Shown piece after piece: positions 546 through 55,970 of a stretch of 64,000 nt of DNA. Position numbers and translations under genes: made by a program. Location of the stretch: positions 13,557 through 77,556 of the forward strand of contig MEOF01000052.1 in NCBI GenBank assembly GCA_001769505.1, read 5' to 3'. The stretch is from Bacteroidetes bacterium GWF2_33_38. GTDB lineage: Bacteria; Bacteroidota; Bacteroidia; Bacteroidales; GWF2-33-38. Numbering within the stretch: the stretch's first letter is position 1; every line of letters starts with the position of its first letter. Under the pieces are notes generated by a model that made no database searches, was not told the DNA's origin, and saw only the letters and a list, made by a program, of their open reading frames with translations.

Positions 546-854
546 ATGATTTCGTCAGAAGAAATAAAACTAATTGCAACTAAAATAAAAGAGAATTTTT
601 TTGTTAAAACAATCATATTGTTTGGCTCTTATGCTTATGGAAAACCTGAAAGCGAAAGCGATATTGACCTTTGTATAATTACTGATGAAAACAAAAGAAA
701 ATTAGAAATTATTAGAGAAATCAGAAAATTATTAATGACAACAATTAAAGAACCTATTGATTTATTGGTTTATAAAGTTGATGAATTTAATGAGCGTTCT
801 ACCATAAAAAGCACACTTGAATATAAAATTAAAAACGACGGAATTTATTTATAA
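546..854 (+). CDS. minimal nucleotidyltransferase (MNT, MntA-like antitoxin)
   Basis: Contains the GS-X(9-10)-DXD nucleotidyltransferase motif (LFGSYAYGKPESESDIDLCIITD). Its stop overlaps the start of the downstream HEPN ORF by 1 nt (TAATG). Confidence 0.8.
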   Translation: MISSEEIKLIATKIKENFFVKTIILFGSYAYGKPESESDIDLCIITDENKRKLEIIREIRKLLMTTIKEPIDLLVYKVDEFNERSTIKSTLEYKIKNDGIYL

Positions 855-1243
855 TGAGCAAAGTTGATGTTGTAAAAGAATGGTTTTATTTAGCTGAAAC
901 TGATTTAAAATCGGCAATATTTCTAAAAGGAATGTCCCCAATTCCTGTAGAAATAATTTGCTATCATTGTCAACAATCTTCAGAAAAATATTTAAAAGGA
1001 TTTCTTGCCTTTCACGACGAAAAAATTGTAAAAACTCACGACTTGATTGTTTTAAATAATTTATGTAAAAAATTCAATTCTGAATTTATAAAAATTGAAG
1101 ATTTCTGTTTAAGACTAACCGATTATTCTACAAATATTAGATACCTAGCAACCTTAGATATAACTCAGAATGATATGGAGTTAGCAATTATTGATGCAAC
1201 AAAAATTCAAGAATTTATTTTGAAATTCGATTTCAATTTTTAA
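854..1243 (+). CDS. HEPN domain protein (HepT-like toxin partner of MNT)
   Basis: 129-aa helical protein translationally coupled to the MNT gene. Has a HEPN(PF05168)-like pattern (..KTHDLIVLNNLC.., ..YSTNIRY..). Confidence 0.7.
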   Translation: MSKVDVVKEWFYLAETDLKSAIFLKGMSPIPVEIICYHCQQSSEKYLKGFLAFHDEKIVKTHDLIVLNNLCKKFNSEFIKIEDFCLRLTDYSTNIRYLATLDITQNDMELAIIDATKIQEFILKFDFNF

Positions 1244-2087: not shown

Positions 2088-4481
2088 CTAAAATTGGATT
2101 CGATATAAAAACATTGGAAAAAAACCTGTTTGGTAATCATAATTAACCGTTTGGTTTCTTGGATTGTATGTTTGTCGGTATATGTTTTTATTGTCAGTAA
2201 CATTTTGCAAATCAATAGCCCATTCTTGATTAAATTTTTTCTTGTTCATTTTAAAACCAATTCTTAAATCAGCTCTAAAATAATCTTCAAATCTATTTTC
2301 AAAAGCCGAAGACCAATTATATTGAGCCTGATTAACAGCTGCCGAAGCCTCAATATCTATCGGAATATATCGCTTACCTCCTGCATAAACGCCCTTTACA
2401 TCAATCGTTAACGAATTATTTCCAATTTTAAATTCATATCCTGCAAGAGCATTGTAAACAAAGTTTCCATTAAAGGCAGTATTTCGTTCGACTCCATCAA
2501 ATCCTGAATATTTCGATTCAAATAATGAAGCTGTCATTAAGAAATAATATCCTTTGCTGAAAAATTTTTCAAAGGTAAATTCAATTCCATAATTTTTACC
2601 TGTTCCTTCGTTTACCAAGCTATCGTAAGTCGATGAGTAAAAATCGTCGCCTGAATTCAAAATTGAATAGGCAAAATTCGATTCAACTACCGGAACATCG
2701 AATAAATATTGATAATACAATTCTGATTTGAATCGGACATTTTCAGAAAATAGTTTTTCGTACGCAAGAACAAGCTGATGCGATTTATAGGTTTTTACAT
2801 CTTTATTTGTGTACAAAATATCATCGTTTTCAAGTTTGGTTTGTAAAAAATAAAAATGTCGAGCCAACATTTGACTATGTAGTCCATATCCTAAACTAAT
2901 CGATTGCGTGTTGGTAATATTATATTTTAATCCCAATCGAGGCTCTGCTGTAACTTCGTTGTTAATTTTAATCATTTGAGAATACAAACCCGAGTTGAGC
3001 ATCAAATTGTCAGAAAAATTATGTTGCCATTGCACGTAAGCTCGAATAATTGATAGGCTTCCCTCTACATTAAAACTATTAACATCTGTATTTATTGAAA
3101 AAACCGTATCGTTATTTTTTAAACTATACAAATCGAAGTACGCTCCGATATTCAAATTGTTTTTTGAATCAAATTTGGTTTTTAAATGAGTTGATACAGA
3201 ATATTTTATTTCGTTATAACTCGAACGATAAAATTTGTACCCCGAACCTTCGATGACTGTTCCTGCAGAATCAAAACGTAATGAATCGACTTGTGTTGAA
3301 GAAGAGTTTCCCTGTACAGCAAGAATTGTTTTGATACGAGTTTTGGTATTAAAAAAATACAAATGAGTTAATCCGACAACTCCGGTATTTGAACCAAATT
3401 TAACATCTGTTCCTAGTAAATTGTAACCCGATTCATCGTCGGTATCGGCATCAACATTTTCGCTATCGTTAAGTTCAATGTAACTAATTCCGCCTAATCC
3501 GATTAAGGAAAATTTACCGATTTTTGTTTTAGCAAAATCTAATTTAAAAGTCAAATCCTGATATTGCGGAATTGCAGAACCTGCACCGAAATTTAAGCCC
3601 ATTGCACTCATCACTCCCAACGTTGAATATCTATAATTTGCTAAATACGATGAGTTGTGTTTGTCGGAAAAAGGTCCTTCGGCTCCCAATTCAAAACCGT
3701 TAAACCCTATTTGCCCAACGTATTCGCGTTTGTAAGTATTTCCTGCTCTCATATTCAAATCGAAAACTCCCGATATTGCATTTCCGTATTCGGCAGGAAA
3801 TGCTCCAGTAAAAAAATCAGAGTTTGTAAGCAAATTATTGTTAAGCATGCTTACCGGACCTCCCGTTGTGCCGGCAGCTCCGAAATGGTTTGGGTTGGGA
3901 ATTTCAACTCCATCGAGTCGCCAAAGCAAACCTGATGGAGAGTTTCCTCTAATAATTATATCGTTTCGAGTATCGCTAACCATCGAAACACCTGCATAAT
4001 TTGCAGCCATTCTCGAAGGGTCGCCCAAACTTCCTGCAAATCGTTCGGTTTCTTCAACTGTAAATGTTCGAGCACTTACGGTTGCCATTTTATTGAGAGC
4101 TTCGTGTTTTCTTCCGCTTGCCGAAATTACAACTTCATCAGTCTGAATCACATTTTCAATAAGCTGTACATTTATTACAATTTCTTTCCCCGAACTCACA
4201 TTCAAATTGTTAACCAAAAAGGTTTTAAAACCCATGTACGAAACCTGTATAGCCTGCCTTCCGATTGGGACATTTTGCAATATAAATTCTCCGTTTATAT
4301 CCGAAATTGTTCCATTTACCGGATTCGACTCTAATAAAACTACACTTGCTCCGGGAATCGGTATTTGCGAATATTTATCAATCACCGTTCCTCTAATGTT
4401 TTGCATAATATCTTGAGCAAAAGCTATCGAAAGGCTTGCTGTCAATAATAAAGTTATCGTTAACGTCTTTTTTAAGTTCAT
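2088..4481 (-). CDS. TonB-dependent receptor-like outer-membrane protein with N-terminal CarboxypepD_reg domain
   Basis: Signal peptide, then a carboxypeptidase-regulatory-like domain (IRGTVIDKYSQIPIPGASVVL), then a plug-like region (IIIRGNSPSGLLWRLDGVEIPNPNHF). The long beta-barrel part ends in an aromatic residue (..YRIQF). Confidence 0.75.
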   Translation of the reverse strand: MNLKKTLTITLLLTASLSIAFAQDIMQNIRGTVIDKYSQIPIPGASVVLLESNPVNGTISDINGEFILQNVPIGRQAIQVSYMGFKTFLVNNLNVSSGKEIVINVQLIENVIQTDEVVISASGRKHEALNKMATVSARTFTVEETERFAGSLGDPSRMAANYAGVSMVSDTRNDIIIRGNSPSGLLWRLDGVEIPNPNHFGAAGTTGGPVSMLNNNLLTNSDFFTGAFPAEYGNAISGVFDLNMRAGNTYKREYVGQIGFNGFELGAEGPFSDKHNSSYLANYRYSTLGVMSAMGLNFGAGSAIPQYQDLTFKLDFAKTKIGKFSLIGLGGISYIELNDSENVDADTDDESGYNLLGTDVKFGSNTGVVGLTHLYFFNTKTRIKTILAVQGNSSSTQVDSLRFDSAGTVIEGSGYKFYRSSYNEIKYSVSTHLKTKFDSKNNLNIGAYFDLYSLKNNDTVFSINTDVNSFNVEGSLSIIRAYVQWQHNFSDNLMLNSGLYSQMIKINNEVTAEPRLGLKYNITNTQSISLGYGLHSQMLARHFYFLQTKLENDDILYTNKDVKTYKSHQLVLAYEKLFSENVRFKSELYYQYLFDVPVVESNFAYSILNSGDDFYSSTYDSLVNEGTGKNYGIEFTFEKFFSKGYYFLMTASLFESKYSGFDGVERNTAFNGNFVYNALAGYEFKIGNNSLTIDVKGVYAGGKRYIPIDIEASAAVNQAQYNWSSAFENRFEDYFRADLRIGFKMNKKKFNQEWAIDLQNVTDNKNIYRQTYNPRNQTVNYDYQTGFFPMFLYRIQF

Positions 4482-4689
4482 AAAGTTTATCTAGTTTATA
4501 AAGTCCATAAAGTTTTTAAAGTAGAAAGAAAAGAGATTAGAAGTTGGACGTTAGATGGGCTCGAGTAGCTTGGACATTCTTGTCCGAGAAAATTTATTCG
4601 TGAATGCGATAAGTTATTCAAGTTCATAAAGTCCATAAAATTTGTAAAGTTTTTAAATCTGGGGGATTATATAATTTCAATTTCTAAAA

Positions 4690-5067
4690 TTAAATAGTTT
4701 TTTCGTCTGTGCAAAGTTTAGCCTTTTTATACTTTTTTGCAATAATAAAAATACCTATTGCATAAAGAGCAATGTTAAATATTCCTATCGAGAATACTCC
4801 AATTGAGAATATTCCTGCCGAAAATATTCCTATTGAGAACATTCCTGCCGAAAAAACACCAATACTAAAATCACCGGCTGCGAAAAAGCCCATCGAAAAC
4901 CGACCTGCACTAAAAATTTCATAATGGTTAAAATGTAAAATTCCAGCTACTAAAATTAACACTAAAGCTGTTCCTAAAATCCAAAAATTTGTTTTCATAA
5001 TTCGTTTGTTTTTTTTGATTAATAAAAATTTGTTTCTGCAATGATACGAGCTAAAAAATCGTTGCAA
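4690..5067 (-). CDS. small membrane protein with tandem G-x-F-S-x pentapeptide repeats; likely true start at the internal Met (MKTNFW.., about nt 4998)
   Basis: The sequence FSAGRFSMGFFAAGDFSIGVFSAGMFSIGIFSAGIFSIGVFSIGIF is encoded by 15-nt tandem DNA repeats. No family recognised. Confidence 0.45.
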   Translation of the reverse strand: MQRFFSSYHCRNKFLLIKKNKRIMKTNFWILGTALVLILVAGILHFNHYEIFSAGRFSMGFFAAGDFSIGVFSAGMFSIGIFSAGIFSIGVFSIGIFNIALYAIGIFIIAKKYKKAKLCTDEKTI

Positions 5068-5147
5068 AAATTTATGTGATTACGAACTATAAAATGTGAT
5101 AACAAACTAGCTTGTGTTGCGATTAGCAAGATTTTGTGACGAAATGC

Positions 5148-5200
5148 AAGCCGTTTTATTTAAAATTTGCCACGAAATTTCGAGAAACTGGAACTAAAAT
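5148..5200. repeat. left copy of a 53-nt imperfect direct repeat bracketing the cas12a locus; a pseudo-3' end of a LytTR gene
   Basis: aagccgttttatttaaaatttgccacgaaatttcgagaaactggaactaaaat matches 10348-10400 at 46/53 positions. On the minus strand it reads VPVSRNFVANFK*, versus the genuine LytTR C-terminus VPVSRNYVVNFK*. Confidence 0.85.
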
Positions 5201-5270
5201 ATCTTTAGAAGCAAAGCTTTAGAAAAAGATAAAAAGCAATACTCTACCAATAATGTTAGAAGCAAATATT

Positions 5271-5336
5271 AGAAGCAAAGCTTTTTGAAAAAGCTTTGCT
5301 TCTTTTTGCTTCTTTTCACCAAAAAGCGTTGCTTTT
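5271..5336. repeat. REP-like unit 1: perfect 16-1-16 palindrome agaagcaaagcttttt-g-aaaaagctttgcttct plus a conserved tail
   Basis: Palindrome at 5271-5303. The tail ..tgcttctt..ccaaaaagcgttgctt is shared with the unit at 5748-5828. Degenerate half-copies lie at 5207-5240 and 5257-5267. Confidence 0.8.
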
Positions 5337-5623
5337 TTTACCAATAGTAGAAATTTTAAAAAACGATTTGACAAACAACTATGCTTTGATTCCCAAGGCT
5401 ATCTACAATAGTAGAAATTTTTAAAAACGATTTGACCGTCAATTGTCATTTCTGTATTTTAAATCTACAATAGTAGAAATTTTTAAAAACGATTTGACGT
5501 ATTTTATCTCTATTCTAAGCTCGTATCTACAATAGTAGAAATTTTTAAAAACGATTTGACACAAATATTTCTTGAAAGGCACTACCAATCTACAATAGTA
5601 GAAATTTTAAAAGCCGATTTGAC
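5337..5623 (-). CRISPR. type V-A CRISPR array: 5 repeats of 36 nt and 4 spacers (26-28 nt), transcribed on the minus strand
   Basis: Repeats lie at 5337-5372 (degenerate), 5401-5436, 5463-5498, 5525-5560 and 5588-5623 (3 substitutions). The minus-strand consensus GTCAAATCGTTTTTAAAAATTTCTACTATTGTAGAT ends in the canonical Cas12a handle AATTTCTAC-TATT-GTAGAT. Confidence 0.95.
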
Positions 5624-5650
5624 TCTATGGTCAAAACCAGCACAAGCAAA

Positions 5651-5665
5651 GGTACAAAATATAAG
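5651..5665 (-). promoter_or_regulatory. candidate CRISPR leader promoter (near-consensus Bacteroidota -7 box)
   Basis: The minus strand reads cttaTATATTTTGtacc about 30 nt upstream of the first repeat. It is close to, but not exactly, TAnnTTTG. Confidence 0.25.
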
Positions 5666-5747
5666 GGTTTTTCAAACAAATAATGAAAACTATTTTACCC
5701 CACCTCGTAAAAAAAAAATACAACTATTTCAAATAACTAATTGTTTT

Positions 5748-5828
5748 AGAAGCAAAGCTTTTTAAAAAAGCTTTGCTTCTTTGTGCTTCTTATTGTTTCT
5801 TTTCTCCAAAAAGCGTTGCTTCTTGCTT
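5748..5828. repeat. REP-like unit 2: palindrome agaagcaaagcttttt-a-aaaaagctttgcttct plus a conserved tail
   Basis: Palindrome at 5748-5780. The tail aligns with unit 1 apart from a roughly 13-nt indel. It sits between the RAYT stop and the CRISPR leader. Confidence 0.8.
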
Positions 5829-5839
5829 CAATAAAGCAT

Positions 5840-6430
5840 CTAATCAAAAGAGAATTGTTTAATTAATTCAAACGAAATTTTTTTCTTATGAAAAAATATG
5901 AAATTTTCTTTGTTATCGAACCATTCTATTACCGCTTGTCGTTGCAAATTCGATGGTTTATCGCTCAAAATGCTATTGTAGCTACTCCACTTGTATGCCC
6001 TAAAATCGTTAACATAACCATGGAGTTGTGGATTAGCATGAATATAAAAGACAAGGTTTGTAAAATATTCATTCGTATATATTTCTATTCTTTTGAAAGG
6101 ATTTTCAAATAAACTACCATGCCTACTTTGTTGTTTATTTGTAGCTTTAGAATAACTTGTAAAAAAACGATGAAATGCTTGACTTGGCTTTTCTAAAAGC
6201 TTTGCTTTTTGTAAAAGCAAAGCTTTTTCTTTCACACGTATCAACAAATGAAAATGATTTGGTAATAAACAATATGCAAATGTTTCGACATAATCAGATA
6301 AATATTCGTTATACCGATTGAGAAAAAAGATGTAATTAAGTTCGTTAAAAAATATTTTATCGGAATTATTTCCTCGATTAAAAATATGATAATATTTCCC
6401 TTCTTCGAGTTCTAGTTGATGCTTTTTCAT
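5840..6430 (-). CDS. IS200/RAYT-like Y1 HUH transposase (REP-associated tyrosine transposase-like)
   Basis: HUH motif LLPNHFHLLIRV and C-terminal Tyr motif FYIHANPQLHGYV..WSSY, typical of COG1943/Y1_Tnp proteins. The gene is flanked on both sides by the same REP-like palindrome. Confidence 0.8.
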   Translation of the reverse strand: MKKHQLELEEGKYYHIFNRGNNSDKIFFNELNYIFFLNRYNEYLSDYVETFAYCLLPNHFHLLIRVKEKALLLQKAKLLEKPSQAFHRFFTSYSKATNKQQSRHGSLFENPFKRIEIYTNEYFTNLVFYIHANPQLHGYVNDFRAYKWSSYNSILSDKPSNLQRQAVIEWFDNKENFIFFHKKKISFELIKQFSFD

Positions 6431-6446
6431 GTTTTATTCAGTTTAT

Positions 6447-6479
6447 AGAAGCAAAGCTTTTTGAAAAAGCTTTGCTTCT
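6447..6479. repeat. REP-like palindrome 3 (identical to 5271-5303), in the 63-bp gap between the cas12a stop and the RAYT start
   Basis: agaagcaaagctttttgaaaaagctttgcttct, with perfect 16-bp arms. Confidence 0.85.
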
Positions 6480-6493
6480 TATGTCATTACCTC

Positions 6494-9400
6494 TTATTTT
6501 AGGTTTTGCACAAAACTTAACCATTCTTTGTTGCTAATTGCAAGTTTTATTTTTTTCAAATCATCGGCTTTTTTAATTTGTTGCACACACCACAAACCTT
6601 TCAATGCAATGTGAAAAGCTCCGTTTGCATCGGCATCTTTTGGCAAATTTGGCATTGCATTTCGGCTATCGTAAAAAACTCCGTTTTTTGCTACTGGCGA
6701 AAGTATAAAATCAATATCGGTTCCCGATTTCGATTGCCGCAACATAAGTGTTAAAGCCAAATAATGTAAAAGTTTCGAAAACAATTGTTTATCGTCTTGC
6801 AAAAGCAATTCGGTTTTTAAATTTTTTCCATTTTTATATTCAATTTTAAATTTATCAAAAATCAATTTCAATTCATTTGTTACATTCACTTCGTCGCTTG
6901 CTTTGGTTTGTGGATTGTAGCGGTAGCGAACGTCGCTGTGTGTGCAAACTGTCCATTTTGTTTGGCTTCCTTCAGCTTTTTCGGTAAATTTTTTATAGTC
7001 GAATTCAAATTCAAAATAATTTTTATCGGCATTAAATTTTATACTTTCAAATTTTTCGAAAAACAATTTTGCTTTTTCAACACTTTCGTATTTGGGTTTC
7101 AAAAAATCGACAAAACCTGTTGCTGGGTCAATTTTGCTTGTGTTCCAAGCCGGAACATAAAACAAAAATCCGCTTTGTTTTCCCATTTTCTCGAAACTTT
7201 CAAATTTGTTAGTCAATTGCAAAGCATTTAAAACTCCTGCGGTTTCGTTTACATCATTATTTTTGAAAACCAAATAATTGAGTTTTTCAATCAACATTTT
7301 TTCAAGTTTTTGGTAAACTTGTCGTTCCACTTTTTGTCTGCCACGCATAAAACCTGCGTTTAAATCTTCCATAACCACAATTGCGTTTTCGTCAACCATC
7401 ATTGTTGCAATTTGATGCACAACTTGGCTCAAATATCCTTCTTTGAGTTCTTTTATGGTTTCAATTGTTTTCCAATCTTGACGAGCGTTTGCTCGTTCAT
7501 TTTCTTTGTTTACCAACAAATTTTTATAATCGGTTTCGTGTTCTTGGCTTGTTGCAATTACGTTTAACGATTGTTGTTTCAACAATTCGCCTTTTTGATT
7601 TATAAGTGTGAGATAAATCAAATGTCGTTCGCCACGGTCTAAACCAATAATTTTAACATCCGAATTCGATTTCAAATATTCGTTCACTTTTGTATTCAAA
7701 TATTCGTTTCCTTCGGCTTTAAAATTCAACGTTATTGGAACGTGAAATTGAAATTTATCTAATGTAAAACGCTTATCTTTAATTAAATCGTAATTAAACG
7801 AACTTTGTTTTTTATTGTTTAGTGGATTTTTATTGTCAATTGCTTGATTTGCTTTGTGAATAATTCTATCAGTTTGTTTTATTGACGATTGTCTGAAAAA
7901 AACTTCGGCTTCTCCGTTCAATTTATAAACCACGTTTTGCAAATTTTGCTCGTCAAACAACATTTTCCAATACAAAGTGTGCATATTTGGTTTTCCTTTG
8001 CTGAAAGGCGAAAAATCTTTATTATAGATTTGAAATAAATACAATTTTCCTTCGTCAACTAATTGATTTATATATGTTTCGTCGAGTTTTGTGAAAGTTA
8101 ATTTATAACCTTGTTTTTCAACTTCTTTGTAAAACTCGCTTAAATCGTTGTACGTTTCAGTTTTCGAAAATTGATGATTAAAATGTTTCCAATCGGTATG
8201 TTTTGCTATTGATTGTTTGAAAAAATCAATCAAATTTTCCATATCTTTTCTAACAAAAGCATCGCCTTTTTTGTGCGTTTCTTTTTGATATTTACTTTGT
8301 ATTTCGGCTGATGGTTGAAAACTTTCAATTCCTTTTGCTGATAAAAATACTTTTGGTAACATTTTATTTGCTCCTGGCAATAATTTGTAATTCATTTTTT
8401 CAAAAGCCGTTTCTTCGTTTTTGCAAACAGGAACATTTCTTTCGAAAATTCGATTGTTCGATTTTGACATAATTCCCAAATAAAACAAACCATTTTTTCT
8501 GAAAATTACGCTTGTGTTAACGGGTTCTTTGTTTACATCCCAACCATTTAGCAATGTGCTATTTTCAAAATTTAGTTTTATTTTTTCGGTGCTGTAAGCT
8601 TTTTGAGTTAAGTAATTTCTTACTTTATTATAAATTGAAATTGTTTGGCTCAAATGTTCAAATAAAGCAGTAAATAAACTGTAAAAAAGTTCGTCTTTTT
8701 CTTTGTCTTTATCTTTTAAACTCAAAGGTTTGAGAAAATGAATTAAATTTAAAATGCTATCCAAAAAATCTTTTATTTGCGAAACTTGTTCTTTTTGATT
8801 TCCCAATTTTATATTTTCGGGATATGGTTCGTTCAATAAATCTTTAATTACTACATAATTATGATGAATTTTTTGAAGCAAATCAATTTTGTTGTCTTTG
8901 TCCAAACCAAGTTTTGCAAAATATTCACTAACAATATTTTTGTTGTTTTTTTCTTTAATTATTTCACTATCACATTCATTTAATGCGGTTTGTATAGTTT
9001 CAATATTGAAATCTTGTTTTAACCATTTTGCTTTACGTTCGTCGTATTTTTCTTGTTTTTCTTTTGATGAAATTGGATTTTGTTTTTCATAATAATCGTT
9101 CAAAGCTGATGAAATTATGCTCCAATCACCAAATAATTTTTGTGAAATATCGGTCAACGAAGTATCATTTCTTAAATAAATTTTAGATAAATCGAATGTT
9201 TTTAAACCAATAATTAAATTTTTGATTGCTTCAAAAATGTTTGTAGTGTGTCCATCGTCTTCGTAGTTACACAAAACGCTACTATAAAATTGTTCAATAT
9301 TTTCGAGTAATTGAGCATCGGTTTCAAAAGTTTCAGCAACAAAAGAAACGCTATGTCTGTCGCTTAAAATTTGCTTGTAAAGTTGTTTGAATTTTGCTTG

Positions 9401-10240
9401 TTTTTTCTTTTTGTCGGTTTGTTTTTGGTTATAATCGGTATTTATATATTCGTTTAAACCTTTAATTTTTGTTTTTCCTTCATCGGCAGTTCTTCCACCA
9501 ATAACAATGTTGTAAAGTTCAATTCCTGTTTGTGTAAGTGTTTGGTTAAAAAAACTTAATGAGAAAATTTCGTCTAAAGTTTTTCCTTGCACAATTTCTT
9601 CCATTTCAACAAGTGTTTTGTTCAAATCTGAAATTAATTCGGGAGCATCTTTTTTAATTTTTTCATAAATTTTCAAATTATCTATAAACTTTGGCAAGTT
9701 TTCGTTAACCAAACGATATGCAATTGCGGTCGCTTTTTCATCGGCAACATACATATTTCGTCTATTTTGGTGAAAACCCGTGAAATAGGTTGTGAAATCT
9801 TTGAATTCGTTTACTAATTCTTTTTGTTCGTCGTCAACAAAATTTAATAAATCTTGTTTTATCAATTCTTTTGCAAAAAGGTTTTTAAAACGTTCTTTAA
9901 TTTCATCATTTGGATTTTTTGCAAAAGCATCAGCAATTTGTTTACGGAGTGAATTGCGAATGTTATCAAATTCTTTTTTATCGGTATCGTCTTTTTCTTT
10001 TTTGTTGAATATCGTTTCGTAAGTTTCTAAACCGTGCAATTTAAAATCGCATAAAACCATTTCAATGAAATATTTATGATATTCATCAATAATTTTCTTT
10101 ACTTTTTTATAACTAACAGCTCTTTCATTGTCTTTTTCAATTAATCCATTTATTTCAATAAATTCTTTAGTTTTTCCTTGTGGAATTAGCTCAAAACGTA
10201 AAGTTTTCGATAATGAAAATTGATTTGTAAATTGTTTCAT
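6494..10240 (-). CDS. cas12a: Cas12a (Cpf1), type V-A CRISPR effector nuclease
   Basis: 1248 aa with the hallmark N-terminus FTNQFSLSKTLRFELIPQGKT. RuvC-I IIGLDRGERHLIY, RuvC-II IVVMEDLNAGFMRGR and RuvC-III KDADANGAFHIALKGLW all retain their acidic catalytic residues. A cognate array lies downstream on the same strand. Confidence 0.97.
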   Translation of the reverse strand: MKQFTNQFSLSKTLRFELIPQGKTKEFIEINGLIEKDNERAVSYKKVKKIIDEYHKYFIEMVLCDFKLHGLETYETIFNKKEKDDTDKKEFDNIRNSLRKQIADAFAKNPNDEIKERFKNLFAKELIKQDLLNFVDDEQKELVNEFKDFTTYFTGFHQNRRNMYVADEKATAIAYRLVNENLPKFIDNLKIYEKIKKDAPELISDLNKTLVEMEEIVQGKTLDEIFSLSFFNQTLTQTGIELYNIVIGGRTADEGKTKIKGLNEYINTDYNQKQTDKKKKQAKFKQLYKQILSDRHSVSFVAETFETDAQLLENIEQFYSSVLCNYEDDGHTTNIFEAIKNLIIGLKTFDLSKIYLRNDTSLTDISQKLFGDWSIISSALNDYYEKQNPISSKEKQEKYDERKAKWLKQDFNIETIQTALNECDSEIIKEKNNKNIVSEYFAKLGLDKDNKIDLLQKIHHNYVVIKDLLNEPYPENIKLGNQKEQVSQIKDFLDSILNLIHFLKPLSLKDKDKEKDELFYSLFTALFEHLSQTISIYNKVRNYLTQKAYSTEKIKLNFENSTLLNGWDVNKEPVNTSVIFRKNGLFYLGIMSKSNNRIFERNVPVCKNEETAFEKMNYKLLPGANKMLPKVFLSAKGIESFQPSAEIQSKYQKETHKKGDAFVRKDMENLIDFFKQSIAKHTDWKHFNHQFSKTETYNDLSEFYKEVEKQGYKLTFTKLDETYINQLVDEGKLYLFQIYNKDFSPFSKGKPNMHTLYWKMLFDEQNLQNVVYKLNGEAEVFFRQSSIKQTDRIIHKANQAIDNKNPLNNKKQSSFNYDLIKDKRFTLDKFQFHVPITLNFKAEGNEYLNTKVNEYLKSNSDVKIIGLDRGERHLIYLTLINQKGELLKQQSLNVIATSQEHETDYKNLLVNKENERANARQDWKTIETIKELKEGYLSQVVHQIATMMVDENAIVVMEDLNAGFMRGRQKVERQVYQKLEKMLIEKLNYLVFKNNDVNETAGVLNALQLTNKFESFEKMGKQSGFLFYVPAWNTSKIDPATGFVDFLKPKYESVEKAKLFFEKFESIKFNADKNYFEFEFDYKKFTEKAEGSQTKWTVCTHSDVRYRYNPQTKASDEVNVTNELKLIFDKFKIEYKNGKNLKTELLLQDDKQLFSKLLHYLALTLMLRQSKSGTDIDFILSPVAKNGVFYDSRNAMPNLPKDADANGAFHIALKGLWCVQQIKKADDLKKIKLAISNKEWLSFVQNLK

Positions 10241-11243: not shown

Positions 11244-12092
11244 CTATTTCTTTTTCTTCGAACGTTTTACAAGCTTCAAAATAACATAAAGAGTTATCCC
11301 AAGAATTAACCATAATGGCCACAAATAAAAGATTCCGATTATAAAAATTATCAAGCCACTCCAACCCGACGAAATAGCATCGCCTAATTTTGAAAAGAAA
11401 CTTGGCTCGTTATAATTGTAGTCGTTGTACTGATTTACCGTTAAATTTATAGTACTATATCCAACCTGATTATTCAAAAATTTAAGTCGGCCTTCGGCAG
11501 CGTCAATTTCTTCACGTATTTGTTTGATTTTGTACTCAACTTCAAGTATTTCGCTTATGGTGTTGGCTTTTTTCAAAATCTCGTAATATCGTGTTTCTAT
11601 TTCCTTTTTAGCTTTTAATCGTGCTTCAATATCAACAAACTCTTCGGTAACGTCGGTTAGTGATACACTTTTTTGTATTACTTTTTTCACATCAACAATA
11701 AGCGTATCGAGCAAATTGTCAAATTTTTCGCTGGCAACTCGTATCGTTAAGCTATTTGAAATCAAATACGATGTATTATTTTCAACTTCGCTCGAAACAT
11801 ATGCGTTGTAGATTCTCAATCGTTTCTTAATTTCCGAAATCGAAGCATCGTAGTCCGCCACTTCAACAGATACGTTTGCTGTCTTGATTATTTTTTCAGC
11901 TATTTTATCTTTTGCCAAATCGTCGATTGATTTTGGAGTTTCCGCCTCTGTATATTCCTCAACATTAGCAGATTTTGCTGTCTGCTCAAATTCCACAGCA
12001 CCGTCAGCCATCATCTGAACATTGTCGCTCATTTGACTGCACGACATTAGCGTAAGCACCAAAAATACGAGTAAATATAAGTTTTGTCTCAT
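11244..12092 (-). CDS. DUF4349-like lipoprotein with coiled-coil region and C-terminal TM helices
   Basis: Lipoprotein signal (..LMSCSQ), coiled-coil segment and two C-terminal TM helices. The family assignment is by recall. Confidence 0.45.
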   Translation of the reverse strand: MRQNLYLLVFLVLTLMSCSQMSDNVQMMADGAVEFEQTAKSANVEEYTEAETPKSIDDLAKDKIAEKIIKTANVSVEVADYDASISEIKKRLRIYNAYVSSEVENNTSYLISNSLTIRVASEKFDNLLDTLIVDVKKVIQKSVSLTDVTEEFVDIEARLKAKKEIETRYYEILKKANTISEILEVEYKIKQIREEIDAAEGRLKFLNNQVGYSTINLTVNQYNDYNYNEPSFFSKLGDAISSGWSGLIIFIIGIFYLWPLWLILGITLYVILKLVKRSKKKK

Positions 12093-12203
12093 CTTCGTAA
12101 TGTTTTAATTAATTTTCATCAAGACATAAAGTTATGCTTATAATCTCATATTTCAAAAATCTGCATTATAATTTATTATATTTGTATCTAAATTAATTTT
12201 TAA

Positions 12204-12755
12204 ATGAAAACCTTTACATTTCTACTTACTATTATTGTTGCAAGCATTTTGTTTTCTTGCAACTCAACAAAATATCCTGAATACATTAAAAAAACGGATA
12301 GCCTGTTAGCAAGTCTTGATAGCATTAGTGTCAAATATCACGAAATAAATTACGGCAGCGTGAAAATTATGTTTGATTTGGTTTCGAAAAATCATGAATT
12401 AATCAAAGAAAACGAAAGCCTTGATTTAGCAAATAATCAAGAGTTAAAACAAGATTTGTTTCAATACGGAAGAATTCACAAAGCTTTTAAAAAATATTTG
12501 AAAGAGTATGATAAAACAAATTCGGATATTGAATTTAATAAAAATCAGTTGAATACTTTTAAAGATGATATTTCGAATAACTTGATAAGCGAAGAAAATA
12601 TCATTAAGTTTTATGACGATGAGCTAAAAGCTCATTCAAATTTAGTTGAGACTATTAATTTTTATAATCACGACGTATCAACTTCCATCAAATTGTATAA
12701 AGAAATTCATACTCGTATGTCTGAATTTTTAACTCCTTCGACAAAAAATGAATAG
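12204..12755 (+). CDS. hypothetical lipoprotein
   Basis: Signal peptide with Cys (ILFSCNS). Overlaps the downstream TPR gene by 8 nt. Confidence 0.45.
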   Translation: MKTFTFLLTIIVASILFSCNSTKYPEYIKKTDSLLASLDSISVKYHEINYGSVKIMFDLVSKNHELIKENESLDLANNQELKQDLFQYGRIHKAFKKYLKEYDKTNSDIEFNKNQLNTFKDDISNNLISEENIIKFYDDELKAHSNLVETINFYNHDVSTSIKLYKEIHTRMSEFLTPSTKNE

Positions 12756-14604
12756 TTCATTTCTTAAAAAGATAAGTGGGTTCATTATTTTTATTCTCGT
12801 TGCTTTAATTTCATTTTCTCAAGTAAACGAGAGCCAATTGGCATTAAAATACTATCAAAACAAAGAATTCGACAAGGCTGCCGACGTGTATCTAAAATTG
12901 TACGAAAAACAAAAATCAGCATATTTTTACAGCTACTACATCAATTGTCTTCTTGAATTAAAAGATTACGAAACCGCCGAAAAATCACTAAAAAAAGAGA
13001 TAAAAAAAGACCCAGCAAATTTATCTCTCTATGTAGATTACGGATTTGTTTTTAAAGTTCAAAACTATTTTGCTAAAGCCGATGAACAGTTCGAAACTGC
13101 AATAAAAAATATTTACCCCGACCGCCAACAAATTATGAATCTTGCAAATGCATTTATCGGAAAACGCGAATTCGATTACGCCGAAATGACATATAGAAAA
13201 GGTCAAAAACTAGAAAAAGACTACGATTACAATATGGAACTTGCAAACCTTTATTATATCGAACGCAACTACGAGGCAATGATTGATGAATACTTGAACT
13301 TACTCGAAACCGACGAAAATTATATTCAGACAGTTCAAAATCGTCTTCAGAATGTTATTTATACCAGTAATGACGACTCGATGCTCGAAATTCTAAAAAG
13401 CAGTTTGATAAAACGAATTCAAAAAAGTCCCGACATAAGTATATTTTCGGAATTATTAATTTGGATTTATATTCAGGACAACGATTTTGAAAATGCATTG
13501 ACTTATACAATAGCTATTGATAAAAGGAAAAAAGAAAATGGCGAACGGCTTATCCTCTTAGCCCGTTCAGCAAATACAAATGAACGATTCGAAATTGCTA
13601 TCGAAGCATATAAATATGTGATTAGCAAAGGTATTGATTCAGAATATTATACCGATGCAAAAAACGAATACCTAAACTCAATATACAATAAAATTACAAA
13701 TTCGGGAATCTTCACAAAGATAGAAATCGAAGACCTTGAAAAAAGTTACCTTGAAACACTAGATGAACTTGGGAAAAAATCCACTACAATATCATTAATT
13801 AAAGAGTTAGCTCATTTACAAGGGTTTTATTTACATAAAGTTGATTCTGCGATAAGTTTGCTCGAAAAATCGCTCGAGATACCGGGAGTTAAACCATCAA
13901 ATATTTCTGAATGTAAGATTGCTTTAGGAGATTTATATTTATTGAATAATGACGTTTGGGCTGCTACTATATTTTACGGACAAGTCGAAAAAAACGATCC
14001 AAATAGCTTGTTGGGACATGAGGCTAAATTTAAAAAAGCTAAACTTGCATACTATGTTGGAGATTTTCAATGGGCAGAAGCTCAACTAGATGTTCTGAAA
14101 GCCAGCACATCAAAATTAATTTCTAATGATGCCTTTTACTTAGCGTCGATTATTTCCGACAATTTAGCTCTTGACACAAGCGAACAAGCCTTAAAAATGT
14201 ATGCTCGAGCCGATTTACTGAGTTTCCAACGAAAAGATTCACTCGCAATGATTACCTTAGATTCCCTTAGCGAAAATTTTAAAACACATTCGCTCGCCGA
14301 CGATGTGCTATATTTAAAAGCCAATATTTACACAATATCTAATAATTATTTGAAAGCTTCAGAGTTATATGAAAAAATTTATAGCGATTATTCATACGAT
14401 ATTTTAGCCGATGATGCTCTTTATCATCTTGCAATTATTACCGAAGAAAAGATAAATGATAAAGAAAAAGCGAAGCAATTCTACAACGATCTTTTACTCA
14501 AATATCCGGGAAGTATTTTTGTTTCAGATTCTCGACAGAGATATCGAAAATTGCGTGGAGATGTACTAAAAAAGACCGAAGAAAAATTTTTTTATGATTT
14601 GTAG
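12748..14604 (+). CDS. tetratricopeptide (TPR) repeat protein
   Basis: 618 aa with repeated TPR-like A/Y/L helical pairs (ALKYYQNKEFDKAADVYLKLY..) and a signal/anchor at the N-terminus. Confidence 0.65.
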   Translation: MNSSFLKKISGFIIFILVALISFSQVNESQLALKYYQNKEFDKAADVYLKLYEKQKSAYFYSYYINCLLELKDYETAEKSLKKEIKKDPANLSLYVDYGFVFKVQNYFAKADEQFETAIKNIYPDRQQIMNLANAFIGKREFDYAEMTYRKGQKLEKDYDYNMELANLYYIERNYEAMIDEYLNLLETDENYIQTVQNRLQNVIYTSNDDSMLEILKSSLIKRIQKSPDISIFSELLIWIYIQDNDFENALTYTIAIDKRKKENGERLILLARSANTNERFEIAIEAYKYVISKGIDSEYYTDAKNEYLNSIYNKITNSGIFTKIEIEDLEKSYLETLDELGKKSTTISLIKELAHLQGFYLHKVDSAISLLEKSLEIPGVKPSNISECKIALGDLYLLNNDVWAATIFYGQVEKNDPNSLLGHEAKFKKAKLAYYVGDFQWAEAQLDVLKASTSKLISNDAFYLASIISDNLALDTSEQALKMYARADLLSFQRKDSLAMITLDSLSENFKTHSLADDVLYLKANIYTISNNYLKASELYEKIYSDYSYDILADDALYHLAIITEEKINDKEKAKQFYNDLLLKYPGSIFVSDSRQRYRKLRGDVLKKTEEKFFYDL

Positions 14605-53107: not shown

Positions 53108-53192
53108 GGAAAGATGGCAGAGTGGTCGAATGCGGCGGTCTTGAAAACCGTTGATCTTCACGGGTCCGGGGGTTCGAATCCCTCTCTTTCCG
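53108..53192 (+). tRNA. tRNA-Ser (anticodon UGA), class II with long variable arm; CCA not encoded
   Basis: Acceptor GGAAAGA/TCTTTCC plus discriminator G. Anticodon stem-loop GCGGT-CTTGAAA-ACCGT. Variable arm TGATCTTCACGGGTC. T-arm GGGGG-TTCGAAT-CCCTC. Confidence 0.9.
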
Positions 53193-54771
53193 CTGAAAGG
53201 GACTTCCCCAATAAAAAAGGGGAAGTCCCTTTTTTATTGGGGCTGCTTTCCCCGATGGTGTGGGCGATTGAGGCAAACACAGAATTTAGTTTTAATGTTC
53301 GAACTGCCCCAATTTTTCTATCATACACGATTCCTTCAGGAAACACCAATCTTTGTAATCTCTCTTTCAATACAACATTGCCGGAAGCCCACATTTCTTG
53401 CAGGTTGTCGCAAATATAAATTGCACGATTCAGTATGTTTTTATTGTTCGAAATGGGATTTTGACAATTGTTCAATTCTTTTATAATTTCAATTTGCTCG
53501 GCTTTATACTTTGAATAGAATCTCTCAAAAGTTTCTTTGCTCATTTCTCCCATAACGTAGAATTTTTCTTCAATCAAATCTAATTTCTTTGTAACTTCTG
53601 TTAGATTCGTTTTTATGGCTTTTTCTTTCTCCGTGTTGCTTTTAGTTAATTCATTGAAGGTGTTTTCCAATTGGAATAAAACAGCCTTTTTAAGGCTTTC
53701 TTTTAGCCGAAAATTAGCAAGCATTGAAATGAAAAGCTGATGCATATCCTTTGCGTTTTTATTACATTGACAACCTATTGTTCTACATTTATAATAATAG
53801 ATGTTTCTTGCTTTCATAAGGTAACCTGTAAATGGTTGTCCACATTCGGAACATTTCAGAAAAACCTTTAATGGAATATTATCATTTTCTGCTTTATGAG
53901 GAACTCCATACAGAGGAGATTCCGATATAATATTGTTAACTTTCAAAAAAGTTTCCTTGCTTACCATTGCTTCATGTGTTCCATCTACAACCTGTCCGTT
54001 TAGCAAGCCATGAGAAACTACTCCACAATAAAACGGATTGCAGAATATTTTGTGGAGCTTCTGTTTGTAAATGTTGGCTCCCATTGCACGTAGCTTCAGA
54101 ATAATATCGTCATTCTTCAATCCATTAAGTTTCCATTCAAAGGCATTTTTTAGCTTTTTACCCTCTTCGTTCAACACAATTTTTCTTGTGCCATTTATTT
54201 TAATTACATCGTATCCTTGTGGAGGTTGGGTTACCCATATTCCTTTTTTTAGTTTCTCAACCATTCCTGCTACAGCTTTTTGTTTGCGAAGCTGATTATC
54301 GTATTCCGAAAAAAGAAATTGAATATTCTGATGAAGTACTCCGCTTGGATTGCTTGTATCGGTTGGTTGAGTTACAGCAAAAACCGAAATTCCCTGCTTC
54401 TCCCTTAAATCAGTAACTATTTTAATGGCTGCTCCTCCGGTACGACTAAACCTGTCTAATGTATAAACCAATACTTGACTTATTTTTCCGTTTGATTTTT
54501 TTATAAACTCAAGCATTCGGTTAAATTCTTTTCTTCCATCGGTTTTAGCACTTTCATAAGTCCCCCCGAAATAAGCTACAATATTAAGATTATGCTTTTT
54601 TGAATATTCTTCAATCGCTTTTTTCTGGGTTTCAAGACTTAGGTTTTTGTCTGCCTGTTCTTTACTTGACACACGAGTATAAACGACTACATTGCCTGTA
54701 GTTACTCGTTTAACAATGGTAGGACTCTTTTTGCCGAACCTTTTGGCAAATGTTGCATCTGTTGTCATCAT
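53158..54771 (-). CDS. large serine recombinase (resolvase/invertase N-domain + recombinase domain + zinc ribbon)
   Basis: Catalytic Ser context VVVYTRVSSKEQ, ..YTLDRFSRTG.., and zinc ribbon CSECGQPF..YYKCRTIGCQC followed by a coiled-coil. The last ~30 codons read through the tRNA terminator and 35 nt of the tRNA gene. Confidence 0.9.
   Translation of the reverse strand: MMTTDATFAKRFGKKSPTIVKRVTTGNVVVYTRVSSKEQADKNLSLETQKKAIEEYSKKHNLNIVAYFGGTYESAKTDGRKEFNRMLEFIKKSNGKISQVLVYTLDRFSRTGGAAIKIVTDLREKQGISVFAVTQPTDTSNPSGVLHQNIQFLFSEYDNQLRKQKAVAGMVEKLKKGIWVTQPPQGYDVIKINGTRKIVLNEEGKKLKNAFEWKLNGLKNDDIILKLRAMGANIYKQKLHKIFCNPFYCGVVSHGLLNGQVVDGTHEAMVSKETFLKVNNIISESPLYGVPHKAENDNIPLKVFLKCSECGQPFTGYLMKARNIYYYKCRTIGCQCNKNAKDMHQLFISMLANFRLKESLKKAVLFQLENTFNELTKSNTEKEKAIKTNLTEVTKKLDLIEEKFYVMGEMSKETFERFYSKYKAEQIEIIKELNNCQNPISNNKNILNRAIYICDNLQEMWASGNVVLKERLQRLVFPEGIVYDRKIGAVRTLKLNSVFASIAHTIGESSPNKKGTSPFLLGKSLSAEREGFEPPDP
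53199..53235 (+). terminator. rho-independent terminator of tRNA-Ser
   Basis: gggacttcccc-aataaaaaa-ggggaagtccc (11-bp perfect stem) followed by TTTTTT. Confidence 0.8.
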
Positions 54772-55064
54772 GCTGCTATTTTTAAGTTGTTATTATATAT
54801 TATTGAATCATCGTCATTTTCCGGTTGAGTCAAGAAATCATAAATGATTGCACAAAAATTCTGAATAGAAAGAACAATTTCTTCTGCTTCAGAATCGGCA
54901 ATATCCTCTAAGCCTTCGAAAGTTTTTAATTTTTCGACAGTAAGGGATTCTTTTTCCGGATTGACACTTTTTCCACAAAAACTGTTTTCTGATTTTTCTA
55001 TGTTAGCTGTTAAGTTCATACTTCTGATTAGGTTAACAGTAATGCAATAATCGCTCCGTTCCAA
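54768..55064 (-). CDS. hypothetical acidic protein translationally coupled to the serine recombinase
   Basis: 98 aa. Its TGA stop overlaps the recombinase ATG (ATGA). No family recognised. Confidence 0.4.
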   Translation of the reverse strand: MERSDYCITVNLIRSMNLTANIEKSENSFCGKSVNPEKESLTVEKLKTFEGLEDIADSEAEEIVLSIQNFCAIIYDFLTQPENDDDSIIYNNNLKIAA

Positions 55065-55367
55065 TATTTTCGGTATGTTCGGGAATTTATTTCAAAGTAC
55101 CTCCTATTTCAAAGATTTATTGCATTTAACTGTATTGATTAATAATTAAATTTATTTAATGGCAGATTTTAACCGGAAAAATTTGAAATTTTCATAAAAA
55201 GAAACCATTGGGGACGATGGCTTTTTCATAAAAGGGACTGAATCCAAATTAGTCCAGTAAAATAAGCTCCATTTCAAATCAAAAGTAGAAAAGGCAAGAA
55301 TGATGATTTTCGGTTTATGCTCGATTATGTAGGGTTTTACCAAACAATTCCAAATTAGGGAGCGTTG

Positions 55368-55420
55368 TGTAGTTTTATGTAGCAAAATGTAGTTTTATGT
55401 AGAATTGTGTAGTTTTAAGT
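55368..55420. repeat. three direct repeats TGTAGTTTTA(T/A)GT at 20-bp spacing
   Basis: Copies start at 55368, 55388 and 55408. Confidence 0.8.
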
Positions 55421-55467
55421 TCCATTCTTTTATCTCCGGACAAATGGGTTTTATTCGTTAATAACAA

Positions 55468-55566
55468 GGAGACAATATGGTAATATTGGTGAGCATGTGG
55501 AGACAATGTGGTGTTTATATGGTGATGATGTGGGGGCAATGTGGTGTTGATGTGGTGATGATATGG
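55468..55566. repeat. three tandem ~31-34-bp units (GGAGACAATRTGGTG...), strongly G+T skewed, containing about 7 copies of ATGTGGTG-like octamers
   Basis: Units start at about 55468, 55499 and 55533. There are only 4 C in about 100 nt. Confidence 0.75.
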
Positions 55567-55962
55567 AATTACTCGGGTTTTTCTACCTTATTTCTAAAAT
55601 AACACCAATTTATTATAGGTTAAACTTGATAAATGATAATTTTTAAAAAAGAATTACAGTATTTGACATTTCAATTGATTTTCTAATTAATCACTAATAG
55701 AAATCTAATCATTGATTTTTATTGTTCTAATGTATTTCTAATAAAAGCCTAATATTATTCTTATATATCTCTAACTTATTTCTATTACTTTATTAGCGTG
55801 TATGTTTGTAATTCGCCTTAATGTAATGGCATATTAATCTGATAATTACACCAAAATATGTTTTTCAACTTGCAATGAATTGTAACGTACTAATTACCAA
55901 TAATAAATATAATAATATTGAATATAACAGTAAATTTATTTGCTCATATTGCAAGTTCAAAT

Positions 55963-55970
55963 TATCTTTG
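55963..55970 (+). promoter_or_regulatory. -7 promoter box (TATCTTTG = TAnnTTTG) for the XRE-ImmA gene, next to an operator-like inverted-repeat half-site
   Basis: The box lies 19 nt upstream of the ATG at 55989. The 10-bp inverted repeat is aacttgcaat (55867-55876) / attgcaagtt (55948-55957). Confidence 0.45.

Follow-up and report, generated by a model that had tools for sequence, protein, structure and literature searches.

The 64-kb stretch of DNA analysed here (the window) carries a type V-A CRISPR-Cas locus, apparently chromosomal, of an uncultured groundwater Bacteroidales bacterium, in which a Cas12a gene and a short CRISPR array are accompanied by a transposase-like gene. We consider it probable that the adaptation module has been secondarily lost, that what has been kept is an effector that appears functional and a short array in a frozen state, and that the intervening gene, a RAYT (REP-associated tyrosine transposase), is a passenger. 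The features of the locus are shown in Table 1.

Table 1. Features of the Cas12a locus, in window coordinates.
Feature	Position	Strand	Basis or remark
CRISPR array, 5 x 36-nt repeats and 4 spacers	5337..5623	(-)	sequence, repeat search, fold
R1, variant repeat GTCAAATCGGCTTTTAAAATTTCTACTATTGTAGAT	5623-5588	(-)	3 positions unlike R2-4
S1, 27 nt	5587-5561	(-)	
R2	5560-5525	(-)	
S2, 26 nt	5524-5499	(-)	
R3	5498-5463	(-)	
S3, 26 nt	5462-5437	(-)	
R4	5436-5401	(-)	
S4, 28 nt	5400-5373	(-)	
R5, degenerate, 3' end ...CTATTGGTAAA	5372-5337	(-)	
CRISPR leader, ~120 nt	5624..5745	(-)	read from sequence
RAYT (Y1-HUH), 196 aa	5840..6430	(-)	NCBIfam, Pfam, homologues, motifs
cas12a, 1248 aa, full-length type V-A effector	6494..10240	(-)	Pfam domains, PDB relatives, residue alignment
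REP copy 1, 33-nt perfect palindrome AGAAGCAAAGCTTTTTGAAAAAGCTTTGCTTCT	6447..6479	(.)	between cas12a stop and RAYT start
REP unit 2, palindrome 5748-5780 and ~50-nt flank	5746..5833	(.)	between RAYT and CRISPR leader
REP unit 3, palindrome 5271-5303 and flank	5269..5346	(.)	right after terminal repeat

The Cas12a effector

The cas12a product matches all five Pfam Cas12a domains (RuvC_1, E = 4.6e-106; REC1, 4.3e-85; cas_Cpf1_2nd (REC2), 7.4e-62; NUC, 5.5e-49; Cpf1_PI-like, 4.6e-35), and the motifs that a preliminary description had quoted are present in its translation. Its best relatives in the PDB are ReChb, FnCas12a and Lb2Cas12a; with ReChb, a reconstructed enzyme, it shares ∼60% identity, and matches to the FnCas12a, LbCas12a and AsCas12a structures span the full length.

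Alignment to FnCas12a shows that the nuclease, RNase and PAM-contact residues are all retained. The RuvC residues D868, E958 and D1204 and the Nuc residue R1168 correspond to D917, E1006, D1255 and R1218 of FnCas12a, the pre-crRNA RNase residues H795, K804 and K821 to H843, K852 and K869, and the PAM-contact lysines K571 and K630 are kept. The RuvC triad is invariant among the 30 relatives compared, as are most of the catalytic, RNase and PAM-contact columns. The 3.7-kb ORF is uninterrupted and is identical in at least five assemblies. From these conserved residues we infer that the enzyme is interference-competent and, K571 and K630 included, that it would carry out PAM-dependent, RNA-guided cleavage of dsDNA.

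The CRISPR array and its leader

Array and effector lie on the same strand, and domains, residues and array anatomy agree with the assignment to type V-A. The repeats are of the GTCAAATCG...GTAGAT type and end in a UCUAC-N4-GUAGAU hairpin of the pseudoknot-forming kind. The canonical Cas12a crRNA handle noted earlier at the repeat end is borne out by folding of the repeat RNA, which forms a 5-bp UCUAC/GUAGA hairpin, although R5 does not; the 19-nt handle AATTTCTACTATTGTAGAT occurs four times (0.12 expected by chance) and recurs unchanged in most related V-A arrays of the comparison. There are indeed five repeats of 36 nt, although the repeat sequence originally quoted is exact in R2-R4 only. 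The four crRNA-sense spacers were read correctly (27, 26, 26 and 28 nt), and the suggested search of phage, plasmid and metagenome data matched no targets: no protospacers were found in the window, the fetched loci, GenBank phages, PLSDB plasmids or IMG/VR. An Rfam search gave no match in the locus. The sole anti-repeat-like match, of R1 to the 3' end of the cas12a coding sequence, is complementary at 15 of 17 positions, which is at chance level.

Bacteroides promoters have a consensus of -33 and -7 boxes, and by its likeness to these we regard a pair of motifs in the leader (TTTG at 5676-5673, N18, TAccTTTG at 5654-5647) as a candidate Bacteroidetes-type promoter. The leader lacks the motif TTTGCAAACCTnnGTCTTAATGCA, which canonical relatives conserve, and its ATAGA|GTC junction with the first repeat resembles those of stand-alone loci. 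R1 differs from R2-4, whereas the first repeat of the canonical relative L008 is the same as its others. The whole array is identical in three assemblies (L001, L002 and L004), but these may share site or reads, which makes their agreement weak evidence of stasis. With its divergent R1 and the same content in three assemblies, the array looks frozen.

In the scheme that we favour, the leader promoter would give a minus-strand array transcript, and the RNase site of Cas12a would cut it upstream of every UCUAC-UAUU-GUAGA hairpin, yielding four crRNAs that each carry the handle AAUUUCUACUAUUGUAGAU. The ribonucleoprotein would read a T-rich 5' PAM through the conserved lysine contacts and cut matching DNA with its RuvC and Nuc residues; no spacers would be added locally. 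The RAYT, together with its cognate palindromes, would have inserted at the 3' end of cas12a.

Absence of the adaptation module from the window

No cas4, cas1 or cas2 had been recognised in the window, and both searches of its 64 kb agree: when V-A Cas4, Cas1 and Cas2 from four relatives were compared with all six frames by tblastn, the lowest E was 0.05, and Pfam annotation of every called gene was empty for the three families. The description of the locus as adaptation-less therefore holds as far as the 64-kb window. The nearest Cas12a relatives (60–66% identity; L006, L008, L010, L011, L094 and L113) all have cas4, cas1 and cas2 directly downstream, so that the absence in the window is best read as a secondary loss. 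Since the Cas12a proteins of stand-alone loci are only 49–56% identical to that of the window and its closest kin are canonical, this loss appears to have occurred independently in the window lineage.

The RAYT gene and its palindromes

The gene between effector and array had been called HUH transposase-like, and with its Y1-HUH motifs intact it can be specified as a RAYT. It matches the NCBIfam profile REP_Tyr_transpos (NF047646) over 137 of 146 positions (E = 1.9e-14), albeit at 53.7 bits, below the equivalog cut-off of 80 bits, and Pfam Y1_Tnp over positions 6-119 of 121 (E = 0.0035). There are 695 homologues, many bearing the JGI name RayT, and the HUH motif H59-F-H61 and the tyrosine motif Y129-I-H-A-N-P (Y129-IHxNP) are invariant in 15 family members.

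Cognate 33-nt perfect palindromes lie on either side of the gene (6447-6479 and 5748-5780), the former folding at -18.7 kcal/mol (z = -4.8). In most of 85 family loci inspected, similarly built palindromes with lineage-specific stems are found up- and downstream of the RAYT. Units 2 and 3 are repeated in the same orientation (unit 2 has 84–96% identity to 5269-5346), such that direct REP repeats of ∼80 nt bracket the leader and array. All three full copies lie within 1.2 kb of the RAYT, and none occurs in the other ∼62 kb of the window. A partial further copy is present at 5204-5227, and a REP-like palindrome lies in frame within the RAYT coding sequence (6189-6226). Unit 3 was flagged as terminator-like on both strands.

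The preliminary description had the transposase-like gene occupying the place of the adaptation module. This does not hold as a replacement, in that L008 has the order cas12a-RAYT-cas4-cas1-cas2-array. Compared with L006, L008 has its RAYT as a cleanly inserted segment of ∼685 nt, the two Cas12a proteins being 91% identical. Among the best 80 RAYT-family loci in reference genomes none has a cas gene within 8 kb, and the nearest kin of the window RAYT (67%) and of the L008 RAYT (85%) lie in housekeeping contexts. Ranked against each other, the two CRISPR-adjacent RAYTs come only about 97th-100th of 120. For these reasons we take the RAYT to be a passenger and no CRISPR component, and by the same comparisons the two RAYTs arrived independently. 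Y1-HUH genes are present at the cas12a/cas4 junction in five loci, representing at least three independent events: one RAYT in the window, a different one in L008, and an IS200-type gene in L011, L095 and L098. No Y1 gene is present in 75 of the ∼85 Cas12a loci examined.

Alternative explanations

The effector and array could instead be a relic in decay, in which defence use ended after adaptation was lost and deletion is under way, eased by the direct REP units. Spacers number just four and have no known targets, the first repeat is variant and the last degenerate, and the ∼80-nt direct repeats surround leader and array; furthermore, adaptation genes are visibly decayed in five of 80 related loci, so erosion is common among them. 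A 1248-codon ORF without selection would soon be disrupted, however, and the intact cas12a, identical across assemblies and with every catalytic, RNase and PAM residue kept, makes this reading rather unlikely. A split locus is also unlikely; here another part of the genome would encode a compatible cas4-cas1-cas2 module, perhaps along with a second array, and adaptation would be supplied in trans. There is good precedent for arrays and cas clusters that lie far apart and function in trans (PMC7145637), and the region inspected comprises 64 kb and a few kb of flank. Nevertheless, a first repeat diverged at three positions and a leader without the canonical motif would not be expected under ongoing leader-proximal integration, and the occurrence of the same array in three assemblies likewise argues against it.

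Two further readings give the RAYT a larger part. The RAYT and REP hairpins might belong to the system, for example by mobilising or regulating the REP-bracketed leader and array, or by processing ssDNA in place of Cas4, Cas1 and Cas2. The repeated junction insertions are in keeping with this, as are REP copies that bracket the array and within 64 kb are found at this locus only; but the 80 best family loci free of CRISPR linkage, the housekeeping settings in which the nearest kin of the two RAYTs lie, the full adaptation module beside the L008 RAYT, and the many Cas12a loci with no Y1 gene make such coupling highly improbable. Alternatively, hairpin-recognising Y1-HUH transposases may land preferentially between the cas12a stop codon and cas4; in the window lineage, insertion of the RAYT and REP would have driven the loss of cas4-cas1-cas2 and left an excisable or mobilisable REP-bracketed leader-array cassette. 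Two unrelated RAYT-REP units and one IS200-type element have arrived there, in at least three independent events. We regard this reading as quite unlikely. If true, transposon hairpin biology, rather than simple decay, would be one origin of stand-alone Cas12a loci.

Secondary loss with a retained effector and a passenger RAYT thus remains our preferred reading, under which the locus would be a clean natural case of loss of the adaptation genes. Its practical value is small: to the Cas12a orthologues it adds a further compact one, of 1248 aa, whose handle is standard. The sole mildly novel point is that Y1-HUH transposase genes have repeatedly inserted at the cas12a/cas4 junction, which, with RAYT genes containing an in-frame REP hairpin, could interest researchers of REP/RAYT systems and of CRISPR-locus turnover.

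Comparison with known systems

Adjacent cas4-cas1-cas2 genes are typical of type V-A, although membership is possible without them. Among 80 related metagenomic Cas12a loci, ten (∼12%; L099, L102, L111, L116, L118, L119, L121, L124, L142 and L157) are stand-alone, defined as having up to 8 kb of flank on each side free of adaptation genes, and another five (∼6%) have decayed adaptation genes. This argues that an effector with a frozen array is a recurrent evolutionary state and no curiosity. Because about one in eight related loci look alike, the window locus is an ordinary V-A variant and no new kind of system. Like it, the stand-alone loci have the array after the effector and no adaptation gene nearby; L111 and L124 share its leader-repeat junction, and several (L111, L142 and L157) its TAnnTTTG box near the first repeat. 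They differ in their more distant Cas12a proteins, and none has a RAYT.

The canonical V-A system of Francisella novicida U112 (FnCas12a; PDB 5MGA, 5NG6) shares with the window the effector domain set, the RuvC D/E/D residues, the Nuc arginine, the WED RNase H/K/K residues and the PAM-contact lysines; canonical V-A repeats are also 36 nt long with the same terminal hairpin. The window locus departs from the canonical plan in having a RAYT and REP palindromes where cas4-cas1-cas2 sits, and only four spacers. L008 (ENA ERZ19047249 scaffold_1396; cas12a-REP-RAYT-cas4-cas1-cas2-array) has a RAYT from this family, 52% identical to that of the window, behind a 33-nt perfect palindrome right after the cas12a stop, but retains all its adaptation genes and an array of 22 repeats, the first of which matches the rest. 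In L008 both RAYT and REP come from a different subclade, whose palindrome is AGACCTGTCAGGTTTTAAAAACCTGACAGGTCT, and their insertion was an independent event. REP/RAYT (REPIN-RAYT) systems are known from Proteobacteria, for example TnpA-REP of E. coli and those of Pseudomonas, and these likewise have a single Y1-HUH gene with cognate extragenic palindromes on both sides. The window RAYT differs from them in its Bacteroidota host, its perfect 33-mer palindromes, the related palindrome in frame inside the gene, and a REP complement of three to four copies, all at the locus within 64 kb.

Cas12a and its CRISPR array

The cas12a ORF encodes a 1248-aa protein that matches all five of the Pfam Cas12a domain models (RuvC_1, E = 4.6e-106; REC1, E = 4.3e-85; REC2, E = 7.4e-62; NUC, E = 5.5e-49; PI, E = 4.6e-35), and solved Cas12a structures align with it over its full length, reconstructed ReChb ranking first, followed by FnCas12a, Lb2Cas12a, LbCas12a and AsCas12a. 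The Cas12a motifs quoted in the preliminary description are present in the translation. That description allowed that nuclease or crRNA-processing residues might prove to be lost, but alignment to FnCas12a (native numbering of chain 5mga) shows that all functional residues checked are kept: the RuvC triad (D917/E1006/D1255 in FnCas12a, D868/E958/D1204 here), the Nuc arginine (R1218, R1168), the pre-crRNA RNase residues (H843/K852/K869, H795/K804/K821) and the PAM contacts (K613/K671, K571/K630). When 30 relatives are aligned, the RuvC triad, H795 and K821 never vary, and K804, R1168 and K571 hardly do. Because the catalytic, RNase and PAM residues are conserved and several groundwater assemblies together contain at least nine contigs encoding an identical protein, competence of this Cas12a for interference is a reasonable inference.

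Downstream of cas12a and on the same strand are five 36-nt repeats with a period of 62-64 nt, separated by four spacers (27, 26, 26 and 28 nt) whose sequences are exactly those first listed. The repeat is characterized by the sequence GTCAAATCGNNTTTNAAAATTTCTACTATTG; four copies of its 19-nt handle are present where chance would give 0.12, and the repeat RNA is predicted to fold into a UCUAC-UAUU-GUAGA hairpin that R5 lacks. Processed crRNAs of 40-44 nt with a 5' start at AAUUUCUACUAUUGUAGAU would be expected from the minus strand of the array. An inverted match of 15/17 nt is seen between the variant 5' part of R1 and the 3' end of the cas12a coding sequence, which by a rough estimate is at chance level for AT-rich sequence. 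No spacer match was found in the window and 173 fetched loci with up to five mismatches allowed, a search in which no self-targeting was seen, nor among GenBank phages, PLSDB plasmids, or IMG/VR using exact 22-mers from each spacer; the repeat is likewise absent from IMG/VR.

The array is small and shows signs of being frozen. The leader-proximal repeat is the one copied at each spacer acquisition. In the canonical relative L008 (ENA ERZ19047249 scaffold_1396) the first repeat is identical to all the others, whereas R1 of the window deviates from R2-R4, and it would follow that no spacer has been acquired since R1 diverged. A leader motif, TTTGCAAACCTnnGTCTTAATGCA, is conserved in canonical relatives about 110-130 nt upstream of the first repeat, directly after cas2 (in L008 and at equivalent sites in L006, L011, L101, L103, L104, L109, L129, L161 and L173), and contains a TAnnTTTG-like box; it is missing from the window leader, as from the other stand-alone loci compared. 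Three assemblies, possibly not independent samples, agree at every position (100% identity) of region 4401-6600. The window leader carries TTTG-N18-TAccTTTG ending 23 nt before R1, which we infer to be a candidate Bacteroidetes-type -33/-7 promoter, and its ATAGA/GTC leader-repeat junction resembles those of the stand-alone loci L111 and L124.

Coordinates of features in the window and in related loci
Locus	Feature	Position	Strand	Remarks
Window	cas12a	6494-10240	-	
Window	RAYT gene	5840-6430	-	196 aa
Window	REP-like perfect palindrome within RAYT gene	6189-6226		in frame, just past HUH motif
Window	AGAAGCAAAGCTTTTTNAAAAAGCTTTGCTTCT copy 1	6447-6479		perfect, 33 nt; flanks RAYT
Window	AGAAGCAAAGCTTTTTNAAAAAGCTTTGCTTCT copy 2	5748-5780		perfect, 33 nt; flanks RAYT
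Window	AGAAGCAAAGCTTTTTNAAAAAGCTTTGCTTCT copy 3	5271-5303		directly beyond array
Window	~80-nt direct repeats	5746-5833, 5269-5346		bracket leader and array
Window	Leader	5624-5745	-	
Window	R1	5623-5588	-	three positions unlike R2-R4, all upstream of mature handle
Window	R2	5560-5525	-	same as R3, R4
Window	R3	5498-5463	-	same as R2, R4
Window	R4	5436-5401	-	same as R2, R3
Window	R5	5372-5337	-	3' end degenerate
Window	R1/cas12a inverted match	5602-5618, 6563-6579		15/17 nt
Window	Small ORF	4690-5067	-	just past array
Window	Five 15-nt tandem repeats	4777-4860		within small ORF
Window	Nucleotidyltransferase gene (NTP_transf_2/Polbeta)	546-854		4 kb from array
Window	HEPN gene	854-1243		adjoins the preceding gene
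Window	tRNA-Ser(TGA)	53108-53193		
Window	Large serine recombinase gene	53158-54771	-	overlaps 3' end of tRNA
Window	RAYT+REP after cas12a stop	5840-6479		cas12a/cas4 junction
L008	RAYT+REP	11740-12424		cas12a/cas4 junction
L011	IS200-type gene	12466-12927		cas12a/cas4 junction
L095	IS200-type gene	6724-7182		cas12a/cas4 junction
L098	IS200-type gene	4123-4575		cas12a/cas4 junction
L008	TTTGCAAACCTnnGTCTTAATGCA motif	~14262-14285		
L174	In-frame palindrome in RAYT gene	6358-6390		
L080	In-frame palindrome in RAYT gene	8231-8263		
L077	In-frame palindrome in RAYT gene	8221-8253		

Absence of the adaptation module

The first reading of the window recognised no adaptation gene, and this holds for the locus and the surrounding 64 kb. 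With the Cas4, Cas1 and Cas2 of four related V-A loci as tblastn queries, the best E-value in any of the six frames was 0.05, which rules out pseudogene remnants of these genes within the window as well, and the precomputed Pfam annotation assigns no Cas1, Cas2 or Cas4 to any called gene. The same sequence is present on DNSL01000057.1, a 194-kb contig of the NCBI MAG GCA_003499665.1.

The nearest Cas12a relatives do carry the module. Downstream of cas12a are a truncated cas4, cas1 and cas2 in L006 (66% Cas12a identity to the window); a REP, a RAYT gene, cas4, cas1, cas2 and a 22-repeat array in L008 (65%); cas4, cas1 and cas2 in L010 (61%); and an IS200-type Y1 gene, cas4, cas1, cas2 and an array in L011 (60%). 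The module is thus ancestral and would have been lost in the window's lineage. The window holds a genuine V-A locus whose effector seems functional and whose adaptation genes appear to have been lost secondarily.

The RAYT gene and its REP palindromes

The protein encoded between cas12a and the leader matches NCBIfam REP_Tyr_transpos with an E-value of 1.9e-14 but, at 53.7 bits, does not reach the equivalog cut-off of 80 bits; its match to Pfam Y1_Tnp is weak. A threshold of E <= 1e-10 gives 695 homologues, many of them labelled 'REP element-mobilizing transposase RayT' by JGI, and within the family both the HUH motif and the YIHxNP tyrosine motif are fully conserved. The palindrome AGAAGCAAAGCTTTTTNAAAAAGCTTTGCTTCT occurs nowhere in the 64-kb window other than at its three sites around RAYT and the array. 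Palindromes built as AGA-N10-TTTT-N-AAAA-N10-TCT, with lineage-specific stems, lie up- and downstream of the RAYT gene across 85 loci of the family. The window ORF is a RAYT gene with what appear to be its cognate REPs. A role for the REPs as intrinsic terminators of the minus-strand genes is not convincing as their main one: only the copy past the array is flagged as a minus-strand terminator, its tail has no clean T-run, and the other two copies are followed by no T-run on that strand.

A REP-like palindrome also lies in frame inside the window RAYT gene, and similar ones occur in L174, L080, L077, L041, L027, L053, L062, L087, L091 and L092; they translate as KALHLxDAKLL-type peptides, at times with tandem expansion. 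An internal stem of at least 10 bp is present in 25 of the 85 RAYT loci and in many of these has the sequence of the REPs flanking that gene, so that the internal hairpin co-varies with the external ones.

Two contigs carrying this cas12a, from independent assemblies, break off within the element, L003 (Logan SRR6488110_33) 43 nt past the cas12a stop, inside REP copy 1, and L005 (JGI Ga0208953_1005435) 114 nt past it, just inside RAYT. The near identity of the three palindromes may break up assemblies at this locus and could conceal structural variation between strains.

Origin of the RAYT element at the cas12a 3' end

The preliminary description placed an HUH transposase-like gene in the adaptation slot. 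Its HUH identity stands, as a RAYT, but replacement of the module does not, since L008 has both and a RAYT can therefore coexist with cas4-cas1-cas2. That L008 has a RAYT in the same place, 52% identical to the window's, first suggested that RAYT is a conserved CRISPR accessory. This we reject. Among reference genomes (Bacteroidota, Chloroflexota and others), the 80 best loci of the RAYT family all lack a cas gene within 8 kb of RAYT. A list of 120 matches to either RAYT has the other only in about the 97th-100th place, and the two belong to different subclades. The L008 RAYT has its closest kin (85% identity) between genes for a methyltransferase and an ABC-ATPase, and the window RAYT has its own (67% identity) in a non-CRISPR, housekeeping context. 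L006, whose Cas12a is 91% identical to that of L008, has no RAYT, and aligning the two reveals a clean ~685-nt REP+RAYT insertion in L008 exactly at the cas12a-stop/cas4-start junction. The two RAYTs arrived independently, and the RAYT/REP unit of the window looks like an insertion at the 3' end of cas12a. That the REPs mediated a deletion of the adaptation module is plausible; no diagnostic junction for such a loss of cas4-cas1-cas2 was found.

Y1-HUH genes occupy the cas12a/cas4 junction in five loci. With the IS200-type genes of L011, L095 and L098 (63-78% identical to each other) added to the two unrelated RAYT+REP units, at least three independent arrivals are indicated, which hints that the cas12a 3' end may be an insertion hot spot for Y1-HUH elements.

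Other features of the window

The small ORF past the array contains tandem repeats encoding pentapeptide-like repeats; its Pentapeptide_2 match is weak, below the Pfam cut-off, and gene calls vary between assemblies. The nucleotidyltransferase and HEPN genes at 546-1243 look like a HEPN/MNT-type toxin-antitoxin module. The serine recombinase (Resolvase and Recombinase domains) at the tRNA lies beside an HTH/Peptidase_M78 (ImmA-like) gene and a HEPN_AbiV gene, and region 53108-59083 probably represents a mobile element integrated at the tRNA, or a defence islet.

Stand-alone type V-A loci

We scored 80 metagenomic loci among the matches listed, with Cas12a 47-63% identical to that of the window, for Cas4, Cas1, Cas2, RAYT, IS200 and arrays. 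Ten of the 80 (L099, L102, L111, L116, L118, L119, L121, L124, L142 and L157) are stand-alone, in that an array lies no more than 1 kb from the cas12a stop and the flanks, up to 8 kb each, hold no adaptation gene, and five more (L110, L112, L156, L158 and L170) have adaptation-gene fragments or partial sets. The Cas12a proteins of the stand-alone loci are farther from that of the window than are those of its canonical relatives. To judge from these comparisons, stand-alone loci are clearly common and have evolved repeatedly; no statement of the frequency of adaptation-less V-A loci was found in openly (CC) licensed papers, and a literature search for RAYTs with CRISPR gave mostly irrelevant matches. 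The window locus belongs to a known, common kind; only the repeated insertion of Y1-HUH genes between cas12a and cas4 is mildly novel, together with a possible role of REPs in reshaping the locus.
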